Source: a virus | Lineage: Duplodnaviria > Caudoviricetes | Direction: 5' to 3' (one strand) | Virus record (IMG/VR): IMGVR_UViG_3300037245_001527 | Span: 1 to 55,310 of that record | DNA: 55,310 nt | Shown: piece by piece, positions 2,667 to 46,555 of the stretch | Position numbering within the stretch: the first letter of the stretch is position 1 | Layout: each line of letters starts with the position of its first letter | Notes under the pieces: generated by a model | Seen by the model: the letters and a program-made list of their open reading frames with translations, nothing else | Database searches by the model: none | What the model was told of the DNA's origin: nothing | Translations under genes and position numbers: made by a program

Positions 2667-3583
2667 TCAGCGACATTGTAATCATTCACCATGAGGGATG
2701 CTCTGACGGGATTTGTGCAGCGATGATCCTGCGGGATTTCTTTCTCACGCTCGATGGTAATCGTAACATCGAGTGCATCCCCGCCAGTTACGGTGACATA
2801 CCACCCGCCCCGGAGAAATTGAACGGCAGGCATGTCTATATTGTGGACTTCTCCTACAGCCGGGGATTCCTCATGGACATTAACATGGGTGCCCGGTCGT
2901 TGGTTGTGCTCGATCACCACAAAACTGCGAAAGCAAACTGCGAGGGCTTACCGTTCTGTTTCTTCGATGAGACACGGTGTGGTGCCGAGCTTGCCTTCGC
3001 CTATGTGTCGACGCGAGAGACCATGGGAGGCTACGACTTGGATACGCCGTTCAGCCTACGCTTGGTAGACTTACCAGGAAAGGTACCGCTCATTGTCGAG
3101 TACGTGGCCGACCGAGACCTCTGGAAGTGGGAGCTTCCCTTCTCGAAAGAGATCAATGCTTGGCTGGCTTCCTTCCGCCGGAGTGAGTTAGTGTGGTCCC
3201 AATTGAAAGATGGCTTGAGGGACGATTTCGACACTGCGGTCACTGAGGGTACGGCGATCCTGCGTAACGAACGTATGTTGACAGCCCGCATTGCAGCCCG
3301 TGCTGTGCCATGTCGTATTGCTGTCGCCGATGGTCTTACGATAATGGCGGTCAACACCCCCATTTTGAACAGCGAAGTGTGTCACTTGTTGCTGGAGTCT
3401 AGCAACTGTGATGTCGCTTGTGCGTGGTATATGGACGGGAAAGGCGGTGTCGTCCATAGTCTCCGCTCCAGGGCCCAGGGCCCTGATGTGAGTAAAATCG
3501 CCCAACAATACCGCGGTGGCGGCGGTCATGAGAACGCTGCCGGTTTCACTACTCAAACCATAGAGGTGATCTGTTGTTCCTAG
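2663..3583 (+). CDS. DHH/DHHA1 phosphoesterase (NrnA-like)
   Basis: CSDG, VDFS, LDHH, DRDLW, SLRS and GGGGHENAAGF motifs. Confidence 0.9.
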   Translation: MISDIVIIHHEGCSDGICAAMILRDFFLTLDGNRNIECIPASYGDIPPAPEKLNGRHVYIVDFSYSRGFLMDINMGARSLVVLDHHKTAKANCEGLPFCFFDETRCGAELAFAYVSTRETMGGYDLDTPFSLRLVDLPGKVPLIVEYVADRDLWKWELPFSKEINAWLASFRRSELVWSQLKDGLRDDFDTAVTEGTAILRNERMLTARIAARAVPCRIAVADGLTIMAVNTPILNSEVCHLLLESSNCDVACAWYMDGKGGVVHSLRSRAQGPDVSKIAQQYRGGGGHENAAGFTTQTIEVICCS

Positions 3584-7502: not shown

Positions 7503-8171
7503 ATGTCACGTCGTCGAATTGGTGTTAATCTTAACACCGTATCCGGTATGCTACCGGAAGAAGTACAGGATGGACTGGTTGGTTATCTACGCATTAAAGG
7601 CGATGCGTTGGTATGCACAGAGTGTTGGGCCATCAAGCCCTGCTCCCATCGAAGTCGTGTTACGATTACCAGACTCCTGATCGAATCGCACGTTGGTCTT
7701 GTGCAGTCGATCGTATCGAAGTTCACCTACCACGATCTCCCGGAACTGTTGTCCGAAGGGTTGTTAATCCTGACCGAGTGTGTTCGGAACTACAGGGCAC
7801 TCACCGACAACAACATCTCACCGTACATCAACACCTGCGTTCGACGCGGTATCATGCGGTTCATCCGGCAGAACATCATGCAAGTTACGGTTGACTATCG
7901 TGCCTATGCCAAAGGACAGACCATCACTCTTCGGAGTGGGGCAGCCGACACTACCATCGACAAGCGTGGAGACGCTACGTTAAGTGTTGACATCCAGGAC
8001 ATTGTCGAACACGTTGTTAAGGATAACAACGAGAAGATCATCGCCGAGTGTCTAATCGGTGGTGGCTACACTTCTCAAGACATGGCGGACCTGTGCAATC
8101 TGTCAAGGTCCAGGGCCCAGGCAATAAAAGCCGATGTAGCATTCCGTTTGGGCGTAGCCTGGAATGGATGA
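7503..8171 (+). CDS. RNA polymerase sigma70-family-like factor
   Basis: Region-2-like LIESHVGLVQSIVSKF..ELLSEGLLILTECVRNY..ISPYINTCVRRGI; region-4 HTH YTSQDMADLCNLSRSRAQAI. Confidence 0.75.
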   Translation: MSRRRIGVNLNTVSGMLPEEVQDGLVGYLRIKGDALVCTECWAIKPCSHRSRVTITRLLIESHVGLVQSIVSKFTYHDLPELLSEGLLILTECVRNYRALTDNNISPYINTCVRRGIMRFIRQNIMQVTVDYRAYAKGQTITLRSGAADTTIDKRGDATLSVDIQDIVEHVVKDNNEKIIAECLIGGGYTSQDMADLCNLSRSRAQAIKADVAFRLGVAWNG

Positions 8172-8594
8172 TGGGCCCTGGGCCTAGTAAGGTTGACATG
8201 AACCTGTTCCTGAATGTTCCACGTATGCAGGCCGACGCAGTGTGGCAGTTCGCTATCAGTCGAGACCTGTTCTATGTTGTCGACAACATCGTAGAAGTCC
8301 TGTGTGGTACACACCATACAGTGACGTTTGCTTTTGGGTTGTTCGACGATTTCAAATTGGCCCACGATTTTCTAAGAGGGTTATCATGAAGTTGTTTCTA
8401 GCAGTGAGTATTGACGACAAAGGTGAAGTGCGTGTTAGCTTACCTGACAACGGCTACGTCATCATGGATGGCCACACAGCGAAGTATCCGGTCGGTGAGT
8501 TTGTGGGTAAGCTTATCAAACAGACGGGCGACACCCTGCGGAATATCGGCGATGACCTGATCGAAAGCAGTAAGTTACCGGGGGACGACGGCCG

Positions 8595-23670: not shown

Positions 23671-24931
23671 GGATCAAACTCCGGTTCACACCCGCCGAGT
23701 TTGTTGAACACCACACTTGTATCGAAGCGATACTCCGGGACAATGCCAGTCACGTCATCGATGGGGACTACACACTGACATATACCATGGGTCTTGAGCC
23801 CGCTGATGTTGCTCTTGCCTTTGCATCGCTCGTCGCAATTGCTGAGGTTAACAACCACGTCACCAAGCGGGAGGGTGTCGACGAGGTCAAGGATCTTCTT
23901 CGTGAACTACTATACAGATTGGAGCAGATATGAGGCACCATACAGGACACGTTCGACGTCTCGGCGAAGAGGCACACGCCAGATTCAAACGTCTGGTCGA
24001 TGTGTTTCCTGCTTGCGGACCCGGCTGTGCCCCAGATACCGTCATGGTTAATGGGTCCAAGGTCCGGATAGCAGTCGACGACTTCAAGACAATCCTAGCA
24101 GAGATACGGAGGCTCAAGTGAGGTACCACAATGGCCCAATGAGGCGGGTCAAGCTCACGTTGCAGCATCGTATCGATGACCTCATGGCACTAATGCCAGC
24201 GACCAAGGATCGACACGAGTCTGCTGTTAGGGTTACCAATGGTGCTGACCTCCGTCGAGCCATTGCACCCATTCAATCAATACTGGAAGAACTGAAGAGG
24301 TGCTCGGGATGAGAACTATGGTATCCATAGCACTGGGAATGTCACTCGTAGCGATAGTCCCTGGTGTACAAGAGACAATCTCTCTTGTCATGGTGAACGT
24401 AAATCAGGTAATCGAAGTGCTAAAGGGGTGCTCGGGATGATAAGATTCGCAGCGGGTATACTGGCGTTCCTTGGTCTAGGCTTCTGGATAATAGGACTGG
24501 TGATGCTATGTTCAAGATAACGATCGGCGTCTACAAGGAAGAGGACATCGTATTTTTCATTGAGGCTGATGATGCAACGGCTGCACTACACAAGGCACGT
24601 CGCATGATATACCTTATCACAAGTGCGGGCGTGCTAAGCATCGACGCCGAAGCAACATGATGACTGGGCCCTGGGCCCAAGGGAGAAGAGCATGGGAGTT
24701 TTGAACTGTGATCGGGTGGGTTGCGATAGTATTATGTGCGATAGAATTTCACATACGTTCGGATACCTATGCTACAAATGTTTCGAGGAACTGGTTGGGC
24801 TTGGCGTCACGACGGACATCGGGTTCTTCATGGCCAACGCATCACGACCTAAGATTCCGACGGTGGATGCGAATGATTTCTTCAACGAAATCTTTCCGGA
24901 TCGGAGGGAGGAGCAATGGTCCTCACTATAG
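23667..24931 (+). other. Cluster of small hypothetical CDSs (e.g. 23667-23933, 23930-24121, 24118-24312, 24692-24931)
   Basis: ATGA/GTGA overlaps and RBS motifs. Confidence 0.5.
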
Positions 24932-25359
24932 ATGAACTCATTCGGTTCGTTGATAAGGTTGACAAGACCGAAGGTGGATGCCACATCTGGACTGGTGGGA
25001 CTAACGGCCAAGGGTATGGTTGTTTCTTGGTCGATGGTAAAATAGTAGGGGCACACCGTGTTGCATGGGCTATTGCTCATGAACGCTGGGCCCTGGGCCT
25101 GGTACTGCACAAGTGTGACACACCACTTTGTGTTAACCCTGACCACCTGTATGAGGGTGACAATAGTCAGAACATGATAGACAAGTCACAGCGTGGCCCA
25201 TTGCATTGCAAACAAAAGCTAACACCCGACGATGTTCGGGAGATCCGTCGGCTCCTCTTTCTTGGTTGTTACACCCATCAAGAGATAAGCGAACAGTTTG
25301 GGGTAGACCGGTCTTCGATTGGTAAGATTAACACCGGTAAGTATTGGAGCCACGTCTAA
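24916..25359 (+). CDS. HNH endonuclease with a C-terminal HTH
   Basis: CHIWTG..GYG..AHRVAW..VLHKCDTPLCVNPDHL..N; KLTPDDVREIR..THQEISEQFGV. Confidence 0.9.
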   Translation: MVLTIDELIRFVDKVDKTEGGCHIWTGGTNGQGYGCFLVDGKIVGAHRVAWAIAHERWALGLVLHKCDTPLCVNPDHLYEGDNSQNMIDKSQRGPLHCKQKLTPDDVREIRRLLFLGCYTHQEISEQFGVDRSSIGKINTGKYWSHV

Positions 25360-25856
25360 TGGTATGGAAGGAGACCAACATAGAAGCGGTGGCCTCTCAG
25401 TTTGGGGGCAACCAGACCAATGTACCCGAGCGGCAGAAGAGGAGGATGCGTACACTATTCATCGAAGGGGCAACGGTTCCTCAGTTGATGGAACGATTCG
25501 GTGTGATGAAACGAACCGTTAATTGGGTGCTCAAACAGCCCGACAAGAGGACAAAGGGGGAGGTAGGGAAGTGCCCCACATGTGGTGCCTTCGTCTACCT
25601 CCCTTGCGTGGAGTGTACTACCTTGCAGTACCCTCCAATACCATCACTGTCACCATCGGAGGATTGTGATGTCGAATTGCACGGTCCAGAACTGCAACGA
25701 TACCTCGTGCTCAAAGCAAAGAAGGACGCAGAGGTGGAGGCCAAGACGCACAAGGAGGATGACGAGCACACAAAGCGTGAGCGAAGGCTACTTGATATCG
25801 AAATGGAGCACGATGATAATCTTAACAAACGTCCTAACGTGGCACTGTTCAAGTAA
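25359..25856 (+). CDS. HTH plus zinc-finger hypothetical protein
   Basis: ATVPQLMERFGVMKRTV (HTH-like); CPTC..CVEC. Confidence 0.55.
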   Translation: MVWKETNIEAVASQFGGNQTNVPERQKRRMRTLFIEGATVPQLMERFGVMKRTVNWVLKQPDKRTKGEVGKCPTCGAFVYLPCVECTTLQYPPIPSLSPSEDCDVELHGPELQRYLVLKAKKDAEVEAKTHKEDDEHTKRERRLLDIEMEHDDNLNKRPNVALFK

Positions 25857-26059: not shown

Positions 26060-26503
26060 ATGCTCGGATTACAGATTAAATTGAAAGATGGTGCAATGCT
26101 CCCTTACTGGAGCGACAATCCGAATAGGATGTACGTCCACGATGGTGGCCTTGACATCCGAGCAAACGAATGCTGCATCCTGCTTCCCGGTGAACGGGGT
26201 GTCGTGAAGACGGGGATTCATACTGCATTTTCGCCTCAATACGTGGCCTTGCTGCGTGATCGTTCGGGGTTGGCTGCCAAACACGGCATCACTGTGCTTG
26301 CCGGTGTCATTGACAGTGGGTATAGGGGTGAATGGAGCGTCGTGCTATTGAACACCGGAAAGGTGAGCTATCACGTCGACCCAGGTGATCGCATTTGTCA
26401 AGCGATCTTTGTTGTACCTAACCACCTTGCCATTGAGCAGGTCGACGAGCTTCCCAACTCGGAGCGAGGGGAGAAGGGGTTCGGGTCGAGTGGAAAGCAG
26501 TAA
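26060..26503 (+). CDS. dut: Trimeric dUTPase
   Basis: GGLDI, DRSGLA, GVIDSGYRGE, GDRICQ, RGEKGFGSSG. Confidence 0.96.
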   Translation: MLGLQIKLKDGAMLPYWSDNPNRMYVHDGGLDIRANECCILLPGERGVVKTGIHTAFSPQYVALLRDRSGLAAKHGITVLAGVIDSGYRGEWSVVLLNTGKVSYHVDPGDRICQAIFVVPNHLAIEQVDELPNSERGEKGFGSSGKQ

Positions 26504-26504
26504 C

Positions 26505-26771
26505 ATGAAGCAGTACATGGGCATTCCCCAAGAGGTGGAGATTCCAAACCAAGAGCTTCGAGTCGTGTTCACACGATTGTTAGCCTTAACCGGTGGAACA
26601 GCGATCGAGATTGCGGAGAGCATGGGCGATACGGCCCACGAACGTGAGATATTGCGTACCAGTCGACGCATGATTACACAAGCTTTCAAGGGACACCTGT
26701 ATAAAGCCCACCTTAGACTACCTTGGTGGGAGATACGCCCTCGCAGAGGACGCAGTGGTACCTGTGAATGA
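26505..26771 (+). CDS. Hypothetical protein
   Basis: ATG immediately after the dut stop; followed by a terminator. Confidence 0.55.
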   Translation: MKQYMGIPQEVEIPNQELRVVFTRLLALTGGTAIEIAESMGDTAHEREILRTSRRMITQAFKGHLYKAHLRLPWWEIRPRRGRSGTCE

Positions 26772-26777
26772 GGCCCA

Positions 26778-26811
26778 AGGCCCGGTTTCCAATAGGAAAC
26801 CGGGCCTTTTT
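26778..26811 (+). terminator. Intrinsic terminator ending the replication arm
   Basis: AGGCCCGGTTTCC-AATA-GGAAACCGGGCCT-TTTT; perfect 13-bp stem. Confidence 0.9.
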
Positions 26812-27070
26812 CATTTGTGGGACCTTCTATTGCACATGATTCAAGGCATTTTGTACCAAACGCGTCTGAATACTGGGCCTTGGGCCCTGGGCAAGCTTAA
26901 CAAATAATTTTAATTATTTGTGTATCTACTACCATTGGGGGTGTCGGTACCCACCCGACCATACTAGAAACACCACCTTAGAGGACGACATACCCGTCCA
27001 AGGTGGCACCACACCTTACGGCTTACACCTTGTGGGTGGTGAGCCAAGCCTTGTCAGTCCACCTTGTCGT

Positions 27071-27099
27071 CGTAAGTCCTTACTACATAGCAGGTTACG
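27071..27099 (-). repeat. 29-bp imperfect palindrome, inverted relative to the 30406-30612 copies
   Basis: Reverse complement is CGTAACCTGCT-ATGTAGT-AAGGACTTACG. Confidence 0.75.
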
Positions 27100-27451
27100 A
27101 CGATTCGAGACCTTACCTTACGACTGACAACAACTACTATTTACTATATCTCCCATAAGGGCTTAAAAGAGAGAGAAATAAATATAGTATAGAGAAATAG
27201 GAAATAGTTGTCAGTCAGTCAGCCGGCCCACGAGTCGCCTTTCGACCGCGTGGGTGGCCGTTCGACGGAACACCCTGCCAGATCAACGAGGATAGGCCGT
27301 CCGTCGCCTTGCGTGGCATTCTCGCACGATCATAGGGTCGGACCAACAGGCCGGTAATGGTGCCTTCATTCGCGAGTAAAAAGTTGTAACAAATTCCGTG
27401 CAAACTGCAACCTTACCCAATTGGTAGCATTACCTTAAAATGCAGGCATAG

Positions 27452-27487
27452 AAAAAGCCCCGCCATCTCACGTTGAGACGACGGGGC
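27452..27487 (-). terminator. Intrinsic terminator of the minus-strand island
   Basis: Minus strand reads GCCCCGTCGTCTCA-ACG-TGAGATGGCGGGGC-TTTTT. Confidence 0.85.
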
Positions 27488-27499
27488 TTAGAACCAGAA

Positions 27500-27667
27500 T
27501 CACGCGTCGACAGCTTCCCTTGCTGTTTCGATGTGCCGCTCGCAGAAGATAAAGGTGGTGCCATGTTGCACGACACCATTGGACGCTTTGCGAGTGCAAC
27601 GGACACCATCGGCTTCATGGTACTGGCATTGATTGTTGTCCTTACCAGCTTTTGCCCTCTTGCTCAT
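27500..27667 (-). CDS. 55-aa Cys/His (putative Zn-binding) protein, not in the ORF track
   Basis: GGAG RBS; MSKRAKAGKDNNQCQYHEADGVRCTRKASNGVVQHGTTFIFCERHIETAREAVDA; terminator follows. Confidence 0.65.
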   Translation of the reverse strand: MSKRAKAGKDNNQCQYHEADGVRCTRKASNGVVQHGTTFIFCERHIETAREAVDA

Positions 27668-27747
27668 AATTACTCCCGATTGTTAAGCGTAACAAATTGA
27701 CGACCTTACGAACAGACAGAGCATCCCTCATTTGGGGATACAAATAG

Positions 27748-27890
27748 ACAGTAAGACTTCACGTCCCCTAGCAGAGCCATTGATACATGCCAAGTGGCAT
27801 TGAGTATTCCTATCGGTCAAGTGACCAACGTATTGCATACCCCTGTCGGGTGCTTGGCACTATCCACTAGGGGACGTGAAGCCTTACTGT
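27748..27890 (-). ncRNA. Candidate rod-like structured RNA
   Basis: 24-bp closing stem (23/24 Watson-Crick; the remaining pair is G-U on the minus strand) with further nested pairing. Confidence 0.5.
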
Positions 27891-27945
27891 TGTGTAGACT
27901 CTGCAAGTTGCCCCCGGTCAATTGCATTGGGAAACTCTAACGACG

Positions 27946-27968
27946 CACTCACTCACTCACTCACTCAC
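27946..27968. repeat. (CACT)n tetranucleotide tract
   Basis: cactcactcactcactcactcac just downstream of the ParB-like gene. Confidence 0.85.
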
Positions 27969-27977
27969 GAACGACGC

Positions 27978-29249
27978 TTAGCTGCTGACGGTAGCAGCCT
28001 TGCCGAAGATGTTAAGGTTAGCCGCGGCGATTTCCACCTGGGCTACCTTGTCGACGCGGATGGCCTTGATGAACGCGGCCAGTCCTTCGTCCTCACAAGC
28101 GGACTCCAGTTCGGCCAGCTTGGCCATTACCTTCTGGAGTCGATAGGACTCCAAGTCGACCGCGTTCAGGTTGATGTCCCGGCTTCCGAGAACGACCGCG
28201 AGGGTTCCCTTGACCGCTTCCGAGATATAAGTCTCGGACCGGCTTTCGAGAGCCTTTTTGGTCATCATCTTGGGACCTTCGGCAGCAGCGATAGCTTCGC
28301 TTGCTTCCTTGGCCGAACCGGGGTCCTTCTCCTTGATGATCATTGCTTCCAACAATTCGTTGAAGTACAAACCACCACCTTCGATGGCAACCTTAACAGA
28401 GCCATCGTCGGCCGTAGTGATTGCCACATCGGCAACCGGACCGAACCACGTAACCTCGCGAGGCTCCTTGGTCTCCTTGTCGACCGTCGCGGTGTCACGC
28501 TTCCAAGCCTTGGAAAGCTTGTTCATCTGGCCGGTACTGATAGGCAGATCGTAGTTCTCCCCTTCGGCCAGAATCTTGTCGCTGACCTTGTGCTTGTAAA
28601 GCACTTGCTCGGCGACCCAAGGCCCCAACTTCTTGGCCTTGATGTAGTAACTCCCCACCTTGGTGTGGAGCCATTCCCGAATGCAGTCCCTTCTCGCTTG
28701 CGAGTTGGGCGGCAATTCGGAATACTCACGAACCTTGGCACCATCGCCCGGATAGAGGATCTTACCAATCTGCTGATACAGTTTGGCAGTCACTTCGATT
28801 TCCGAGAAACCACGGTCGAATAGGCGATAGATCGCATTGACGACTTCGGCCGGACTCGCTTGGAGCGAGGCACCTTGGTCGAAAACTTGCTCTTCCGCTT
28901 CCGCTTCCGTACCCTCGAAAAAGATTACCGGGACGGTTTCCAGGGACTGAACCAACTCGAACGAGAAGTCCGCCGGGTGGGCCAGTATGTACGCTACCGC
29001 ATCCGATCGACGATGACCTTGAAGCCGGATAACCGAACCCTTCGGCAACCCATGCTTTTCACAGAATTCGTCGGACGCAACCCACACCAATAGGGGATGG
29101 GGGACGCCCCCGAACCGGACGATTTCCTCCACCATGGACGGAATATCCATGTTGTTGGCGAACCGGTAATTCCAGGAAAAGGCCAGAGCCAATTGAATGA
29201 ATGGCAATGCCACGATTTTGTCGATAACGGTCTGCTTTTTGTTAGCCAT
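27978..29249 (-). CDS. ParB-like protein (ParB/Srx N-domain plus HTH), about 423 aa
   Basis: NYR..DIPSMVEEIVRFGGVPHPLLV..LQGHRRSDAV..VPV (GxRR patch), then SPAEVVNAIYRLFDRGFSEIEVTAKL; likely ATG at 29249. Confidence 0.7.
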   Translation of the reverse strand: MANKKQTVIDKIVALPFIQLALAFSWNYRFANNMDIPSMVEEIVRFGGVPHPLLVWVASDEFCEKHGLPKGSVIRLQGHRRSDAVAYILAHPADFSFELVQSLETVPVIFFEGTEAEAEEQVFDQGASLQASPAEVVNAIYRLFDRGFSEIEVTAKLYQQIGKILYPGDGAKVREYSELPPNSQARRDCIREWLHTKVGSYYIKAKKLGPWVAEQVLYKHKVSDKILAEGENYDLPISTGQMNKLSKAWKRDTATVDKETKEPREVTWFGPVADVAITTADDGSVKVAIEGGGLYFNELLEAMIIKEKDPGSAKEASEAIAAAEGPKMMTKKALESRSETYISEAVKGTLAVVLGSRDINLNAVDLESYRLQKVMAKLAELESACEDEGLAAFIKAIRVDKVAQVEIAAANLNIFGKAATVSS

Positions 29250-29343
29250 TGGAATAGTCTTTCTGTAAAGATAGACCAGGGGCAACTAGCAGAATCTACA
29301 CACTACGGCCCGTCAATGGCAGCCTTGACACTTGTTAAGGTTA

Positions 29344-29439
29344 TCAGCGGTAATCGGAATCGTAGAACATGAACCGACGAACACAGATCAGAAGCGGAAC
29401 AATCGTCAAAAATGCTATTAGTGGGATCATCGTGGCCAT
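29344..29439 (-). CDS. Small hydrophobic peptide (28-31 aa)
   Basis: MATMIPLIAFLTIVPLLICVRRFMFYDSDYR; AGGA RBS before the second ATG; fills the loop of an inverted-repeat pair. Confidence 0.5.
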   Translation of the reverse strand: MATMIPLIAFLTIVPLLICVRRFMFYDSDYR

Positions 29440-29511
29440 CCTATCTGTCAAGGCAGCCATTGACGAACCGTAGCACTTACAGGGCCCAGTACATCCTACC
29501 CGGTAAAAAGT

Positions 29512-29910
29512 TCATCTGAAGCATTTTTGTGCTTTGCCATGTAACTCTGAACCGGACTTCTTTCTGGTAGAAAGTCGCTTGCCACCCGTTCCGGTGGGTC
29601 CACATTCCCCAGGGGTGGGGTAAATTCGCCCCAACCCGCCAGGTTGACAATCCCGCATAACCGGCCGTTTCCCTGCAATCAGCAGTTCCTCGACCAACCG
29701 CCATGCGTTTTCAAACCCGTCAAAACCCCGTAAAGTATTCACCATATCGGCGGAATCATGAACATGATACCGTCCAATGTAAGATACTCTTGGTTTCCGT
29801 GGTTTCCTCACTAACTCTTCCATCGTGGGGGGTGGGTCCGGTAAATCTTTCTCTTTGACAACTGGACCAGTCCACGACGTACCATAATCGATATGTTCCA
29901 CAGTTCCCAT
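29512..29910 (-). CDS. Hypothetical protein
   Basis: 132-aa ORF with GGGTGGT upstream; enclosed by a 29-bp inverted-repeat pair. Confidence 0.55.
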   Translation of the reverse strand: MGTVEHIDYGTSWTGPVVKEKDLPDPPPTMEELVRKPRKPRVSYIGRYHVHDSADMVNTLRGFDGFENAWRLVEELLIAGKRPVMRDCQPGGLGRIYPTPGECGPTGTGGKRLSTRKKSGSELHGKAQKCFR

Positions 29911-30169
29911 ATAACACCACCCGTTCTCCGGGTAGGATCTACAGGACCCTGTAAGTTTTTCTCTTTTTCACCATGTGGACGGTAGTTGTTCCCGGTTTCC
30001 ACGGGTTCGTCCGACCCTCCAGTTTTTACTGGCCGAATCGACTTGCAACCCTACAACCCACAATATCCGGACTGACGGTTTCTGGTTGGGCTCCCTGCCC
30101 CCGCCCCATGGCCCCCTAAATTGGCCGACCACCGGATACCCTGCACATTATGGTGCTATATACGCCAGA

Positions 30170-30217
30170 ACTCACTCACTCTGTAAAACTTACTCACTCA
30201 CTGAAAAACTTACTCAC
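30170..30217. repeat. About 20-bp iteron-like direct repeats ACTCACTCACT..AAAACTT
   Basis: actcactcactctgtaaaactt / actcactcactgaaaaactt / actcac. Confidence 0.7.
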
Positions 30218-30405
30218 GTTGCGGTTTTCACTCTTGACCCGGTTATGTCGGTCGCGGCGGTTGGGGCGGTCATGCCGTCCCGTTGCCATATAGGCGTTTG
30301 CCGCGTCCGTCGTTCCCGTTGTCCGTCGTTCCTTCCCGCACTTACATAATACGGCCGACCACCCGAAAGGAAAGGCCCCGAAAGGAAGGACGCCGACCGA
30401 ATCGT

Positions 30406-30612
30406 CGTAAGTCGTTTGGTGGTAAGGACTTAAAATCTTTCGAGAATAATCCGATCCGTTGTTTGGACACTTAGTATCGGTACAACAATCGTCGTAAGTT
30501 AAGGTTACCAAAGGACTTAGGACGACGCATCGTAAGTCGTTTGACAGTAAGGGGTTACGAAATACCAAGTGTCCACCTCGCATCGTAAGTCGTTTGACCA
30601 TAAGCACTTACG
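30406..30612 (+). repeat. Cluster of four 29-bp imperfect palindromes CGTAAGTCGTT-N7-AAGSACTTACG
   Basis: Copies start at 30406, 30493, 30531 and 30584. Confidence 0.85.
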
Positions 30613-30628
30613 TCGTTTTGGCATGGGT

Positions 30629-30730
30629 GGCGTGGGCGTGGGCGTGGGCGTGGGCGTGGGCGTGGGCGTGGGCGTGGGCGTGGGCGTGGGCGTGGGCGTG
30701 GGCGTGGGCGTGGGCGTGGGCGTGGGCGTG
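30629..30730 (+). repeat. (GGCGTG)17 hexamer microsatellite, G-quadruplex-prone
   Basis: 17 perfect units giving regularly spaced GGG tracts. Confidence 0.97.
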
Positions 30731-31637
30731 GGCCCGGACCGCATCCCGGCACAACCATTACAACCAGCATCGCCAATCAAATCGGAACGACTCAGGCAAT
30801 CAGGGCCCAGGGCACAGCCCATTTGTTTATAATGACCCATAATCTCCACACGATGTGGCCCATTACTATATTCATTACGACCGGACCCATGTCAACCTTA
30901 CCATGGGCCCAAGGCCCAGGAGTAATATCTACTGGCAATATCTATAGCTCCATGCCCTACTGTATATACTGTAGATAGTACAGGATGGCTGGGCCCTGGG
31001 CCAGTGGACAGTAGGATGTACAGTCCCCAATGGTGGTAGTATATAGTACACATATACATATAAAGAATGCAGGGATATTCTACACTGTTCCCTGTACATC
31101 CTACATACAGTAGAATATACAAGGGGGAGGGTCAAATCTTTCCGGTAAAGTCTACAGTGGTTGCCCTATCCTCCCACCCCCTATGCTATAAGAATATTTC
31201 AACTTTTATTTTGACCTAATTTTACCTAACCGGGTGAGGTGGGTCAAATGTTAATTCTACCAGTGGCAATGGAAGGGCAAATCGCAGTGAAAACGAAATT
31301 CGCAAAATTTTAATTACGATCTGGACGGCTCTGGACGACGAAATGGCCCAGGGCCCAGTTTTCATACTATTTCACGGTGTTCAGTGGTCATGATCTATGT
31401 GCAATACACCATTTATCGATCTAGGGGTTATAATGGGACCCTATAGGATGGGCCCTGGGCCCGTTATAGCCCGCAGGGCTATATTTGAGCTTAGAATGCG
31501 TTCCCTGGTGTCCTGATGGTGTCAAAACACACCGAATTGGACCTAGAACGCGTTTCATGGGCCGATTTTGCACATTATATGTAATATACATTTTGTGCAG
31601 GCAAAAAGCTTTGTGATGTGCTATAAGTATGTAGGAG

Positions 31638-32846
31638 ATGCTCTATTCCACACCCAAGTCGAGCCCTGGAGCCTGTAAAATGTTGTTACACCGATCGTGC
31701 AAAACACTTGTTAGCCTTACCATCGCGATCCTTCTCTTGGTGGGTAGCGTGCAAGCCCAGACTTATGACCCGTCCACAATAGGCATCCTTTTCCCCAGTT
31801 GTCGGCAAGGCCAGTGCGGCCCGCGTGGCTGCAATGTCCCACGACCCCCGGTTATCCGGCCTCCCAGGCCGGCACAACCTCCTCGCCGGACTCCCGACAT
31901 CCGGCCTGGAGGACGAAGACACGTCTCTGAGATTCGAGTGCGAGCCGTCCACGGCAATCAGTCCCAATTGGGCTGGGCGAGCTTCATCGTCTACAAAGAC
32001 AAACAATACCTTCTTTCGTGTACTCACGTCTTTCGTGCGGGCTGGAAAAGCTACGCTCTAATCAACGGACAAGACGTTGAGCTTACACTTCTTTCGGCTG
32101 GTGGTCTTGCTGATATTACCATTTGGGCAGCACCCGCCAACCATCCATCACCCCTACGGCTGGCACCCACGTCAGCCCCAGTTGGAACAGCCGTAACGGT
32201 CGCCGGGAATCCCGGTGTCGTACTCGGTTACGTTGGTAGTGACATCGAGGTGCGTGCCAACGTCAAAGAGGGAGACTCCGGTGGCCCCATGTTTTCATCG
32301 CAAGGTCTAGTGGCAATCCTGACAGAATACGCTCCCGGCGAGGGAACGTGTATCGGTCCGAATGTGTTATTGATCTCCGCCTTACTCGATGGCCTCGCTG
32401 GTCCCCCTCAAGCAAAAGAACGTCCCATGGTTCCCGTCGTCCCGCCTGTTGTGGTTGTAGAGCCCCCGCAGGTAGTCGTGGAACCATTCGACGATACTGA
32501 TATTCGTGCCCGTCTCGATGCACTAGAGAGTAAAATCACCGGTGTTAAGATTAACAAAGACGAAATTGGATTGCACGGTAAGCGGATAGCATCGATCGAA
32601 AAGGTCGCAAGAGAAAACACTATTTTGATTCAGCGTGTTGTGGGGTCGGTAGAGTCCTTACAGAAGGAGGTGGTCCGAGACGGGAAATCCGTGGACACCT
32701 TGACCACGGAGAACAGAGAGTTGAAGATTCGGTTACAACGACTGGAACAGACTTCAACCGTCCTCTCCGACACGTTGAAAGGTAAGATGCAGTTTCGTGT
32801 GAGGATCGATCAGTCCGGTCGTGTGATCGGTGTCGATCCTCGTTAG
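31638..32846 (+). CDS. Secreted trypsin-like serine protease with Pro-rich linkers and a C-terminal coiled coil
   Basis: Signal-like LVSLTIAILLLVGSVQA; LSCTHV (His), ADITI (Asp), GDSGGP (Ser); alternative start at 31680. Confidence 0.85.
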   Translation: MLYSTPKSSPGACKMLLHRSCKTLVSLTIAILLLVGSVQAQTYDPSTIGILFPSCRQGQCGPRGCNVPRPPVIRPPRPAQPPRRTPDIRPGGRRHVSEIRVRAVHGNQSQLGWASFIVYKDKQYLLSCTHVFRAGWKSYALINGQDVELTLLSAGGLADITIWAAPANHPSPLRLAPTSAPVGTAVTVAGNPGVVLGYVGSDIEVRANVKEGDSGGPMFSSQGLVAILTEYAPGEGTCIGPNVLLISALLDGLAGPPQAKERPMVPVVPPVVVVEPPQVVVEPFDDTDIRARLDALESKITGVKINKDEIGLHGKRIASIEKVARENTILIQRVVGSVESLQKEVVRDGKSVDTLTTENRELKIRLQRLEQTSTVLSDTLKGKMQFRVRIDQSGRVIGVDPR

Positions 32847-45727: not shown

Positions 45728-46555
45728 ATGTTACGAGATTTTTTGACGCAACCGTTTGTGCTTGTCTACGATGACAACGAAGGTGGAGACGATGGCGGTG
45801 GTGACGGCGGCGACGGTGCCGGCGGCCAAAAGAAGGGTGGGGACGACGGTAAGTTGTCTATGACCCAAGACCAGTTGAATAAGATGATGGCGGACAACCG
45901 CCGGAAGATTACTCAACAGAACGAGAAACTGGTTGCTGAGATCAACGGTCTCAAAGATCAGGCGAGTATGACTGCTACCGAGCGGTCGGAATTGGAAGAG
46001 CGTGTGGAGAAGCTCCAAGAGCTTACCATGTCGCACGAAGAGATCACCAAGCGGAACACGAAGAAGGCCAGTCAAGCCCACCAGAAAGAGCTTGATAACC
46101 TTACCAATGAACGTGACCATTGGCGATCCAACTACACCAACGAGCGGGTCAGTCGATCACTACAGGACGCGGCTATCGAAGCCAAGGCCACGGTGCCCGA
46201 ACAGATCGTTTCGCTCTTGGGACCACAAACTCAACTGAGCGAAGTGCTTGGTGAGGACGGGAAGCCCACTGGGGCCTACCAGCCGTTGATTAAGTTCGTC
46301 GATGTCGACGACGACGGCAAACCGACCACCCTTTCCCTATCGCCTGTCGATGCCATGAAACGCATGAAAGAGCTACCAGATCGATTTGGTAATCTCTTCA
46401 TGAATCCTGGTGCCGGCGGCTTCGGTGCCGACAACGGTTCCGGCGGCAAGGGTGGAAAGAAAACGACAATCGACGCCATCAAAGATCCCGCTGCTTATAT
46501 GAAGTGGCGGAAAGAAAATCCCGGTGTCGATCCCACATCCCTTTTGAAAGGTTAA
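45728..46555 (+). CDS. Capsid scaffolding protein
   Basis: Gly/Asp-rich N-terminus, TQDQLN, coiled coil, PGAGG tail; directly upstream of the coat gene. Confidence 0.75.
   Translation: MLRDFLTQPFVLVYDDNEGGDDGGGDGGDGAGGQKKGGDDGKLSMTQDQLNKMMADNRRKITQQNEKLVAEINGLKDQASMTATERSELEERVEKLQELTMSHEEITKRNTKKASQAHQKELDNLTNERDHWRSNYTNERVSRSLQDAAIEAKATVPEQIVSLLGPQTQLSEVLGEDGKPTGAYQPLIKFVDVDDDGKPTTLSLSPVDAMKRMKELPDRFGNLFMNPGAGGFGADNGSGGKGGKKTTIDAIKDPAAYMKWRKENPGVDPTSLLKG

Follow-up and report, generated by a model that had tools for sequence, protein, structure and literature searches.

Our analysis of a 55,310-base virus record (IMGVR_UViG_3300037245_001527; "the window" means this whole stretch of DNA) describes a short minus-strand operon in which each unit lies between the two arms of its own long inverted repeat. 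Four such pairs, called stalks D, A, B and C in the order of transcription, enclose a 132-amino-acid (aa) open reading frame (ORF), a 28-aa hydrophobic peptide, a 423-aa protein that is plausibly ParB-like, and a candidate small structured RNA. The feature is real and conserved, and it is most likely a property of the RNA. We propose that each cistron is closed in the sense RNA by a stalk that would compete for its ribosome-binding site and from which RNase III would release it, an explanation to which, as a whole, the sequence evidence gives about an even chance of being right.

Four stalks and the units that they enclose

An earlier model-made interpretation of the letters alone (the sequence-only reading) had placed four abutting inverted-repeat pairs in this region, and a repeat finder returned all four at the same coordinates: stalk D at 29475-29503/29928-29956 (29 nucleotides (nt), 90% complementary), stalk A at 29303-29330/29446-29473 (28 nt, 89%), stalk B at 27891-27922/29271-29302 (32 nt, 88%, with the earlier 29-nt core inside it) and stalk C at 27748-27771/27867-27890 (24 nt, 96%). 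Its claims of 0-1 nt between neighbours and of 10 non-Watson-Crick positions are borne out exactly. Adjacent arms along the operon are 1, 0 and 0 nt apart, and on the minus strand the imperfect positions comprise 6 G-U, 3 U-U and 1 G-G, with one U-U mismatch apiece in D, A and B and with all 6 G-U pairs becoming A-C on the plus strand. The enclosed features are also those it listed, namely the 132-aa ORF, a small hydrophobic ORF, the large ORF at 27978-29249 and 95 nt in the last unit. The arms occupy nearly all intergenic bases. They are orthogonal, with energies of -50 to -52 kcal/mol for cognate and only -10 to -19 kcal/mol for non-cognate arms, in agreement with the claim that the pairs lack obvious similarity to one another.

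When the whole 55-kb window was scanned with G-U pairs allowed, the four stalks were the top four long-range helices of the minus strand, with scores of 28, 27, 25 and 21, and the same pairs scored lower on the plus strand. Maximum helix scores in 12 dinucleotide shuffles of the window were 17-22, which places three stalks above all shuffles; stalk D by itself does not exceed every shuffle, yet it is conserved in all relatives. Folding of the operon, proposed by the sequence-only reading as a check, supports the same arrangement: the minimum-free-energy structure of the entire operon recovers D, A and B in the window's lineage and in the three related lineages described below (4/4). For the stretch containing D and A, the sense strand is more stable by 39 kcal/mol (z = -7.4 sense versus -5.9 antisense). 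A search for an outer helix joining the leader to the end of the operon yielded nothing beyond chance (best ungapped score 11-12 versus shuffle maxima of 14-16), and duplex folding of the long operon flanks gave energies equal to those of shuffles.

Transcription would run through the leader, D, A, B, C, the 55-aa ORF and a terminator-like hairpin, in that order, with the following parts.

29928-29956, minus strand: 5′ arm of stalk D, paired with 29475-29503 at 27 of 29 positions, including 1 G-U
29512-29910, minus strand: 132-aa ORF inside stalk D, without assigned function; start 17 nt past the 5′ arm, stop 8 nt before the 3′ arm
29475-29503, minus strand: 3′ arm of stalk D
29446-29474, minus strand: 5′ arm of stalk A; 28 of 29 positions paired, 3 of them G-U
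29344-29430, minus strand: ORF of the 28-aa hydrophobic peptide inside stalk A, with conserved start and Shine-Dalgarno sequence in the loop
29302-29330, minus strand: 3′ arm of stalk A
29271-29301, minus strand: 5′ arm of stalk B, partner 27892-27922
27978-29249, minus strand: gene inside stalk B for the 423-aa protein, whose N-terminal half is weakly ParB-like
27939-27973, minus strand: (GUGA)n repeat in the 3′ untranslated part of unit B, of varying length among lineages
27891-27922, minus strand: 3′ arm of stalk B
27863-27890, minus strand: 5′ arm of stalk C, 28 base pairs (bp) counting G-U pairs
27776-27862, minus strand: loop of unit C, a candidate conserved structured RNA without a conserved ORF; 95 nt enclosed, 87 nt when the stem is extended by G-U
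27748-27775, minus strand: 3′ arm of stalk C
27500-27667, minus strand: last gene of the operon, 55 aa, cysteine-rich, outside any stalk; homologs in the related loci L007, L008 and L011
27455-27489, minus strand: intrinsic-terminator-like hairpin ending the operon, 16 pairs followed by a U run; equivalents in L008, L011 and L007

No sigma-70-like promoter is predicted on the minus strand within the operon, and a conserved terminator-like element follows it, which supports the prediction of a single transcription unit. The ORF list gives unit A 38 aa, or 28 aa when counted from the conserved start, and the ATG within arm A is not conserved.

Conservation in close relatives and distant phages

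Loci that encode close homologs of the 423-aa protein are virus and metagenome contigs, and with the window they make up four lineages. Identity of this protein to that of the window is 78-79% in L008 and L011, 61% in L007, L006 and L009, and 60% in L010. Stalks D, A and B abut in the same order in all four lineages; stalk C is kept in L008, L011 and L010 and has shrunk to a shorter hairpin in L007. In all 16 stem-lineage combinations the helix measures 21-30 bp, at -38 to -53 kcal/mol. The arms diverge between lineages yet still pair: cognate arms reach -38 to -53 kcal/mol, an arm taken from the other clade only -9 to -30 kcal/mol, and arms combined across the stems of a single lineage -8 to -21 kcal/mol. 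Among 218 pairs in 8 within-clade comparisons, 177 were unchanged, 16 had changed on one side with pairing kept, 16 were double compensatory changes and 9 pairs were lost. These changes were counted by script, MAFFT alignments of whole units having left the arms of the two clades out of register. A test for covariation in related phages was among the checks suggested with the sequence-only reading, and conservation of the layout with compensatory change in four lineages, including the 16 double changes, speaks for its claim. L017, which ends inside gene D, was excluded, as was L012, which had been considered as a further lineage and was dropped as an unrelated AT-rich locus. A scan of genome contigs added no further lineages, and for P0008 no viral locus was obtained.

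The enclosed units are conserved together with their stalks. Homologs of the 132-aa protein are 75% (L008), 51% (L007) and 60% (L010) identical, and in 4/4 lineages unit A holds a hydrophobic peptide of 28-29 aa within a helix of 25-29 bp. The nucleotide sequence of unit C's loop is conserved in L008 (3062-3160) and L011 (1133-1231), the inner helices of the loop show compensatory changes, and the ATG of the window is lost in relatives; it looks like a small structured non-coding RNA and is a candidate for one on these grounds. Rfam 15 covariance models gave no match at E <= 1 on either strand of 26500-31700. Between unit C and the last gene, at 27721-27741, lies a small conserved hairpin of the CCCC-AAAUGA-GGG type with a U-rich tract, also present in L008 and L011, which may be an attenuator. 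L008 carries at 2804-3031 an extra 55-aa ORF (2823-2990) exactly at the junction of B and C, absent from L011 and the window and followed by a perfect second copy, 14 nt long (3017-3030), of the outer 3′ arm of B. The length of the repeat that follows gene B differs widely from lineage to lineage, L010 having the longest; in the window this repeat reads (GTGA)n at 27939-27973, and short repeats of the GAGTAAGTTTT type occur upstream of the operon at 30165-30215.

In the window's clade the substitutions carry a strand signature. On the sense strand the stems contain 31 G-U versus 5 A-C cells, which by our own reading correspond to about 25 versus 4 independent events; stems A-C alone have 27 G-U and 0 A-C cells. 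Mismatches are likewise skewed, with ~8 pyrimidine-pyrimidine and ~2 purine-purine events. Among the few polarised transitions at the four-fold sites of genes B and D, 2 would make G-U and 7 would make A-C. Since these background substitutions run the opposite way, mutation bias does not explain the G-U excess, and the pattern, together with the conserved layout and its compensatory changes, points to selection on sense-strand RNA structure in this clade, as the sequence-only reading had concluded from the G-U pairs and U-U mismatches of the window.

The layout extends to distant phages. A word-indexed search of 5.8 billion proteins found only 7 clusters for the 423-aa protein; in a profile search of 1.84 billion representative proteins the family comprised 134 representatives at E <= 1e-3 and 69 at E <= 1e-10. 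A sub-alignment of seven family members led to five viral loci, L018-L022, in records of 43-97 kb and 37-60% GC, three of them estimated as 99-100% complete. All five have tandem or nested gene-enclosing stems around the ParB-like gene and its small neighbours. L019 has three stems in series, two of them abutting, and L020 six units in series; in L022 and L018 the stems are nested, an outer stalk holding a small stalked unit together with the large gene. The module runs opposite to the bulk of the genes in every distant genome. Scans of 5 whole genomes found 16 helices scoring >=25 with a loop >=60 nt, against shuffle maxima of 17-23 over 24 shuffles, and 14 of the 16 lie within ~4 kb of the ParB-like gene.

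Across the 9 lineages, simple rules describe the geometry. A sense ORF of at least 28 aa is enclosed by 31 of 34 stems and fills 0.53-0.98 of the loop, the three exceptions being C units, and enclosed ORFs share one direction in every lineage. The stop codon lies <=16 nt upstream of the 3′ arm in 20/31 stems and the start codon 10-28 nt downstream of the 5′ arm in 22/31; arms are clear of ribosome-binding sites and coding sequence in 34/35 pairs. Elsewhere, very long stems of 37 and 48 bp with loops of 123 and 258 nt occur at similar genome positions in G003 (57941-58137) and G006 (56191-56544), distant from the ParB-like module and with no clear ORF enclosed, and a 24-bp stem sits snugly around a 357-aa ORF on the minority strand of G003 (91297-92431).

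A proposed ribosome-binding-site switch and its rivals

A terminator scan flagged a small hairpin composed of the inner end of arm D and the Shine-Dalgarno-like stretch just downstream; this inner end of the 5′ arm, CCUACCCGG, is able to pair alternatively with the Shine-Dalgarno-like CGGGUGG. The same relation is found across units. Pairing of the 5′ arm's inner 12 nt with the unit's own Shine-Dalgarno region averages -10.3 kcal/mol, compared with -5.6 kcal/mol for that arm's outer 12 nt (Wilcoxon p 1e-4), -6.8 kcal/mol for shuffled inner ends (p 1e-5) and -6.7 kcal/mol for Shine-Dalgarno regions of non-cognate units from unrelated loci (p 3e-4). Individually, 12/24 units have p <= 0.05, among them units of L018, L019 and L020. 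As judged by complementarity, the anti-Shine-Dalgarno inner end is a sense-strand-specific feature that the distant phages share. The Shine-Dalgarno window is predicted to be unpaired with a probability of 0.30 when the arm is free and 0.51 when it is occupied (25 units), the rise exceeding 0.2 in 12 of the 25. The 5′ arm, its Shine-Dalgarno region and the beginning of the 3′ arm make up a three-way match. Formation of the long stalk precludes the short hairpin that hides the Shine-Dalgarno sequence and vice versa, and the stalk is by far the more stable of the two, from which we infer that closing the stalk would free the ribosome-binding site. The sequence-only reading had suggested translationally gated RNAs, and this suggestion calls for correction: Shine-Dalgarno sequences and conserved start codons are located in loops, outside the stalks, and the start in arm A is not conserved. 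What can hide the site is local pairing of the 5′ arm's inner end with it, and a closed stalk should expose it.

We propose that a separate long-range helix of 24-35 bp closes each cistron, and also one candidate non-coding RNA, with one arm just upstream of the ribosome-binding site and the other just past the stop codon. During transcription of the cistron, the free 5′ arm would fold back into a short local hairpin and hide the Shine-Dalgarno sequence. The emerging 3′ arm would then pair with the entire 5′ arm, using the outer part as a toehold, and displace the short hairpin so that the site opens. Translation of a cistron would have to await synthesis of its 3′ end and would last no longer than that end stays intact. 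Closed stalks, with their 24-35 bp and few mismatches, are also of a kind that bacterial RNase III ordinarily accepts; cutting by the host enzyme, plausible by analogy with rRNA stalks and T7 early mRNA, would yield single units with their ends still paired. It is a tentative extension of this scheme, one we hold to be less than likely, that each cistron checks the integrity of its own 3′ end so that only complete, undegraded copies are translated, a counterpart in bacterial viruses of the eukaryotic closed-loop idea that would be built gene by gene from RNA alone, and that RNase III might release end-paired or circular RNAs.

If the proposal is right, one operon in an uncultured group of ~95-kb phages follows a hitherto undescribed plan in which every gene has a long-range RNA helix, and 5′-3′ pairing, seen in single cases such as icaR, hok and rRNA stalks, would extend to a modular, repeated design. 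It would constitute a natural cis-acting strand-displacement switch that couples translation to transcript completion, and its orthogonal stalks would offer compact parts for gene insulation in synthetic operons. The regular geometry, with stop codons 3-16 nt before the 3′ arm and the Shine-Dalgarno sequence just past the anti-Shine-Dalgarno inner end, suits clean experiments.

Several observations weigh against this explanation. Transcription, folding, cleavage and gating are all predictions from sequence. Complementarity to the Shine-Dalgarno region is weak in 7/24 units (p > 0.25), and homologous units of related lineages are not independent, which makes the p-values given above optimistic. 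Translation that is held back during transcription would expose nascent RNA to Rho in many hosts. The strand signature is uneven: stem D of the window's clade shows no bias (4 G-U versus 5 A-C cells), and in the five distant loci we counted 9 G-U versus 24 A-C cells on the sense strand and 8 pyrimidine-pyrimidine versus 8 purine-purine mismatches, without asymmetry. The signature is thus not general and may even be reversed in the distant loci, where the A-C excess is what neutral decay under the background bias would produce, unlike selection on sense RNA. L020 fits poorly in two respects. A 33-nt inverted repeat (2320-2352/5233-5265, 97% complementary, its copies separated by 2.9 kb) runs across another stem, with the 3′ copy overlapping a 90-aa ORF at its end, a misfit to a nested RNA fold; in addition, the arms of this locus have a common core, neighbouring arms being 81-92% complementary, so that local hairpins could form. 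A search for close relatives of L020 returned L020 alone. The insertion in L008, judged from its sequence, looks like gene gain at the DNA level at a stalk junction. Finally, no RNase III gene (Ribonucleas_3_3) was matched in the window and 7 related records, in a search whose control found the family in 10/14 reference genomes, so that a host enzyme would be needed; a domain for binding double-stranded RNA (dsrm) had no match in the window, and no RNA ligase was found in the records searched.

One competing account retains the RNA helices and dispenses with the switch. Stalks would serve RNase III processing and stabilisation only, in the manner of rRNA or T7, paired ends would protect monocistronic RNAs, and the match to the Shine-Dalgarno sequence would be functionless. 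We regard this as doubtful, though the helices, of 24-35 bp with few mismatches and placed between genes, suit such a role, the neighbouring arms of L020 can make T7-like local intergenic hairpins, and unit C encloses a candidate non-coding RNA, for which translation control cannot be the purpose. Long-range mRNA duplexes are, moreover, known RNase III targets (PMC11780869). This account leaves unexplained why inner ends match their cognate Shine-Dalgarno regions better than non-cognate ones; local hairpins would be enough for cutting, yet gene-enclosing pairing is the conserved form. Similar objections meet the improbable view that the stalks are passive armour or insulation against single-strand nucleases or Rho, allowing independent folding with neither cleavage nor switching. 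That nearly all intergenic bases lie in arms and that the stems are orthogonal would agree with it, but local hairpins would do equally well, and the gene-enclosing topology, the tight spacing after stop codons and the anti-Shine-Dalgarno inner ends would all go unexplained.

A role at the DNA level is quite improbable in our estimation. The units would be gene cassettes whose recombining inverted repeats lead to inversion, gain and loss, with gene conversion keeping the arms alike. Gene conversion would also yield co-varying arms, the distant loci have near-perfect arms without a sense G-U excess, and a length of 25-35 bp is near the minimum for homologous recombination. The arms of L020 share a core like shufflon sites and one of its pairs crosses another, and the L008 insertion is flanked by the 14-nt arm duplicate. 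Duplication and mobility were the signs by which the sequence-only reading expected DNA-level terminal repeats to betray themselves, and of these we found this one case, an arm copy beside an extra ORF, and found it only once. Against cassettes of this kind, no serine or tyrosine recombinase (Resolvase, Phage_integrase) was matched in the window or in 5 related records, of which 3 are at least 99% complete, units keep one orientation throughout the 9 lineages, and no strand-changing joint occurs in contigs from 4 runs, which is weak evidence as contigs drop rare variants. In the window's clade the sense G-U bias is opposite to the background pattern of substitutions; arms stay clear of the Shine-Dalgarno sequence and nevertheless match it specifically; and the window's four arm pairs are unrelated and have no common recombination core, such a core being shared only in L020. 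Chance or an assembly artefact has a negligible claim: stem D alone falls within the shuffle score range, but the other three stems beat all 12 shuffles, and the layout recurs in independent assemblies from several records, with the region present in runs of two studies.

Known systems, genomic setting and further observations

The stalk operon is a variation on the known themes of 5′-3′ pairing and RNase III stalks. Bacterial 16S and 23S rRNAs are flanked by long helices of ~25-30 bp that are cut by RNase III. The likeness lies in a flanking long-range helix inside a polycistronic transcript, and unit C likewise encloses a candidate non-coding RNA; the difference is that the phage units are mostly protein-coding, with stalks 0-1 nt apart, four to six of them serial or nested, and with an anti-Shine-Dalgarno inner end. 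The RNase III sites of T7 early mRNA are local intergenic hairpins. Early RNAs of T7 and SP82 (Bacillus) are also polycistronic phage RNAs of small genes, punctuated in each intergenic region by double-stranded elements that depend on a host enzyme. In contrast to T7, arms here pair across the gene; a 3′ arm and the next 5′ arm reach only -8 to -20 kcal/mol in the window's clade, and the T7-like local hairpin alternative exists only in L020. The type I toxin mRNAs hok and aapA1 use long-distance 5′-3′ pairing, and the closed form of hok is inert. Unit A is similar as a 28-29-aa hydrophobic peptide in a 5′-3′ closing helix; unlike hok, every phage unit has a closing helix, the closed form is predicted to be open for translation, and no antisense RNA gene was identified. 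A plus-strand promoter-like site was sought inside unit A and none was found, and predicted Shine-Dalgarno accessibility in closed unit A is mixed, at 0.10-0.60.

Other parallels are of design. Synthetic toehold switches likewise have a hairpin-hidden ribosome-binding site that is opened by strand displacement from a free toehold, the difference being that the phage trigger would be natural and in cis, at the end of the same cistron. Eukaryotic closed-loop mRNA also ties translation to the 3′ end; here no protein bridge is implied. Shufflons and invertible segments share with the operon tandem DNA segments flanked by inverted repeats, and the repeats of L020 share a core, but the lack of any recombinase match in the records searched, a single orientation and four unrelated pairs in the window set the operon apart. 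Among published cases, Bacillus subtilis RNase III cuts long-range mRNA duplexes of 10-36 bp with <=505 nt between cuts (PMC11780869). These too join mRNA strands hundreds of nucleotides apart; they are scattered single cellular cases, whereas the phages have an array with one stalk per cistron and loops of up to 1.3-1.8 kb. In Staphylococcus aureus, the icaR 3′ untranslated region is reported to pair with the Shine-Dalgarno region and repress translation, with RNase III involved (PMC3868564). The two ends of one mRNA, the Shine-Dalgarno region and RNase III are common to both systems; in contrast to icaR, the phage 3′ arm is predicted to relieve the hiding hairpin, which is the opposite sign, and the design is repeated in each cistron. 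In full-text searches of the literature, no account of phage stalk arrays that enclose genes turned up, and the view that the layout is possibly undescribed stands within the literature searched. The nearest items were the B. subtilis and icaR papers and an E. coli RNase III study, in which none of five terms for flanking or long-range pairing occurred.

The label "ParB-like," which the sequence-only reading attached to the 1.3-kb gene, is weakly supported. Neither the 423-aa protein nor 6 close homologs matched a Pfam family at E <= 0.01, and the protein had no PHROG match and no sequence match to solved structures. With its AlphaFold model (predicted local distance difference test (pLDDT) score 61), the top 10 Foldseek matches were all ParB or Noc chains and KorB ranked 12, all of them weak (E 2.7e-3 and weaker, template-modelling (TM) score <= 0.22 on the query). 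ParB_N appeared at E 0.0015-0.0024, below the cut-off, in 2/10 distant family members. A ParB-like identity is plausible from these model-based matches, set against the missing Pfam match and the pLDDT of 61. The 132-aa protein had no Pfam or PHROG match; a solute-binding relationship was considered and rejected, since the Atlas clusters share only 118-132 features, which we take as chance. The 55-aa protein has a weak match to DUF5763 (E 1.8e-4), below the curated cut-off.

The source record is linear, with an estimated completeness of 59%. Most genes of the window are on the plus strand. A first block concerns replication and nucleotide metabolism (family A DNA polymerase, class II ribonucleotide reductase, a sigma-70-like protein, ligase, ThyX and dUTPase), and a later block of structural genes starts with a GpA-type terminase; the stalk operon, a short block on the minus strand, sits between the two, with ORF-poor DNA on both sides. 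A tblastn search with the ParB-like proteins against a phage collection gave no match to cultured relatives, and the best terminase match was only 26.6% identical. The operon region occurs in runs of two studies, RNA runs containing it were looked for with no hit, and DNA contigs of 4 runs yielded a relative differing at ~12% of aligned letters.

Repeated elements surround the operon. Copies of the motif AAACGACTTACGA(C/T)G, with an inverted half-site GTAAGTC, lie upstream (30403-30595), a single copy lies downstream (27068-27107), and the motif is also present in L008 at 1-350. The window holds 6 matches at <=3 mismatches versus 1.5 expected, one of them away from the operon at 46461-46475, and the 35-nt outer pair 27073-27107/30398-30432 consists of repeats of this motif. 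The ParB-like protein, or some other regulator, may bind to them. A 26-nt block, ATAGCACCATAATGTGCAGGGTATCC, is found once in the window (30134-30159), is common to L007 and absent from L008, and may be a promoter or leader element. A long dinucleotide-type repeat at 30608-30776, whose frames read (PT)n, (RP)n or (HA)n, is probably non-coding. Intergenic palindromic motifs resembling GGGCCC(A/T)GGGCCC lie at 8096-8195, 26772-26886 and 30803-31462, and in L007 near 2082-2101. Directly before the dUTPase gene, at 24916-25856, are two neighbouring HNH-endonuclease-like ORFs.

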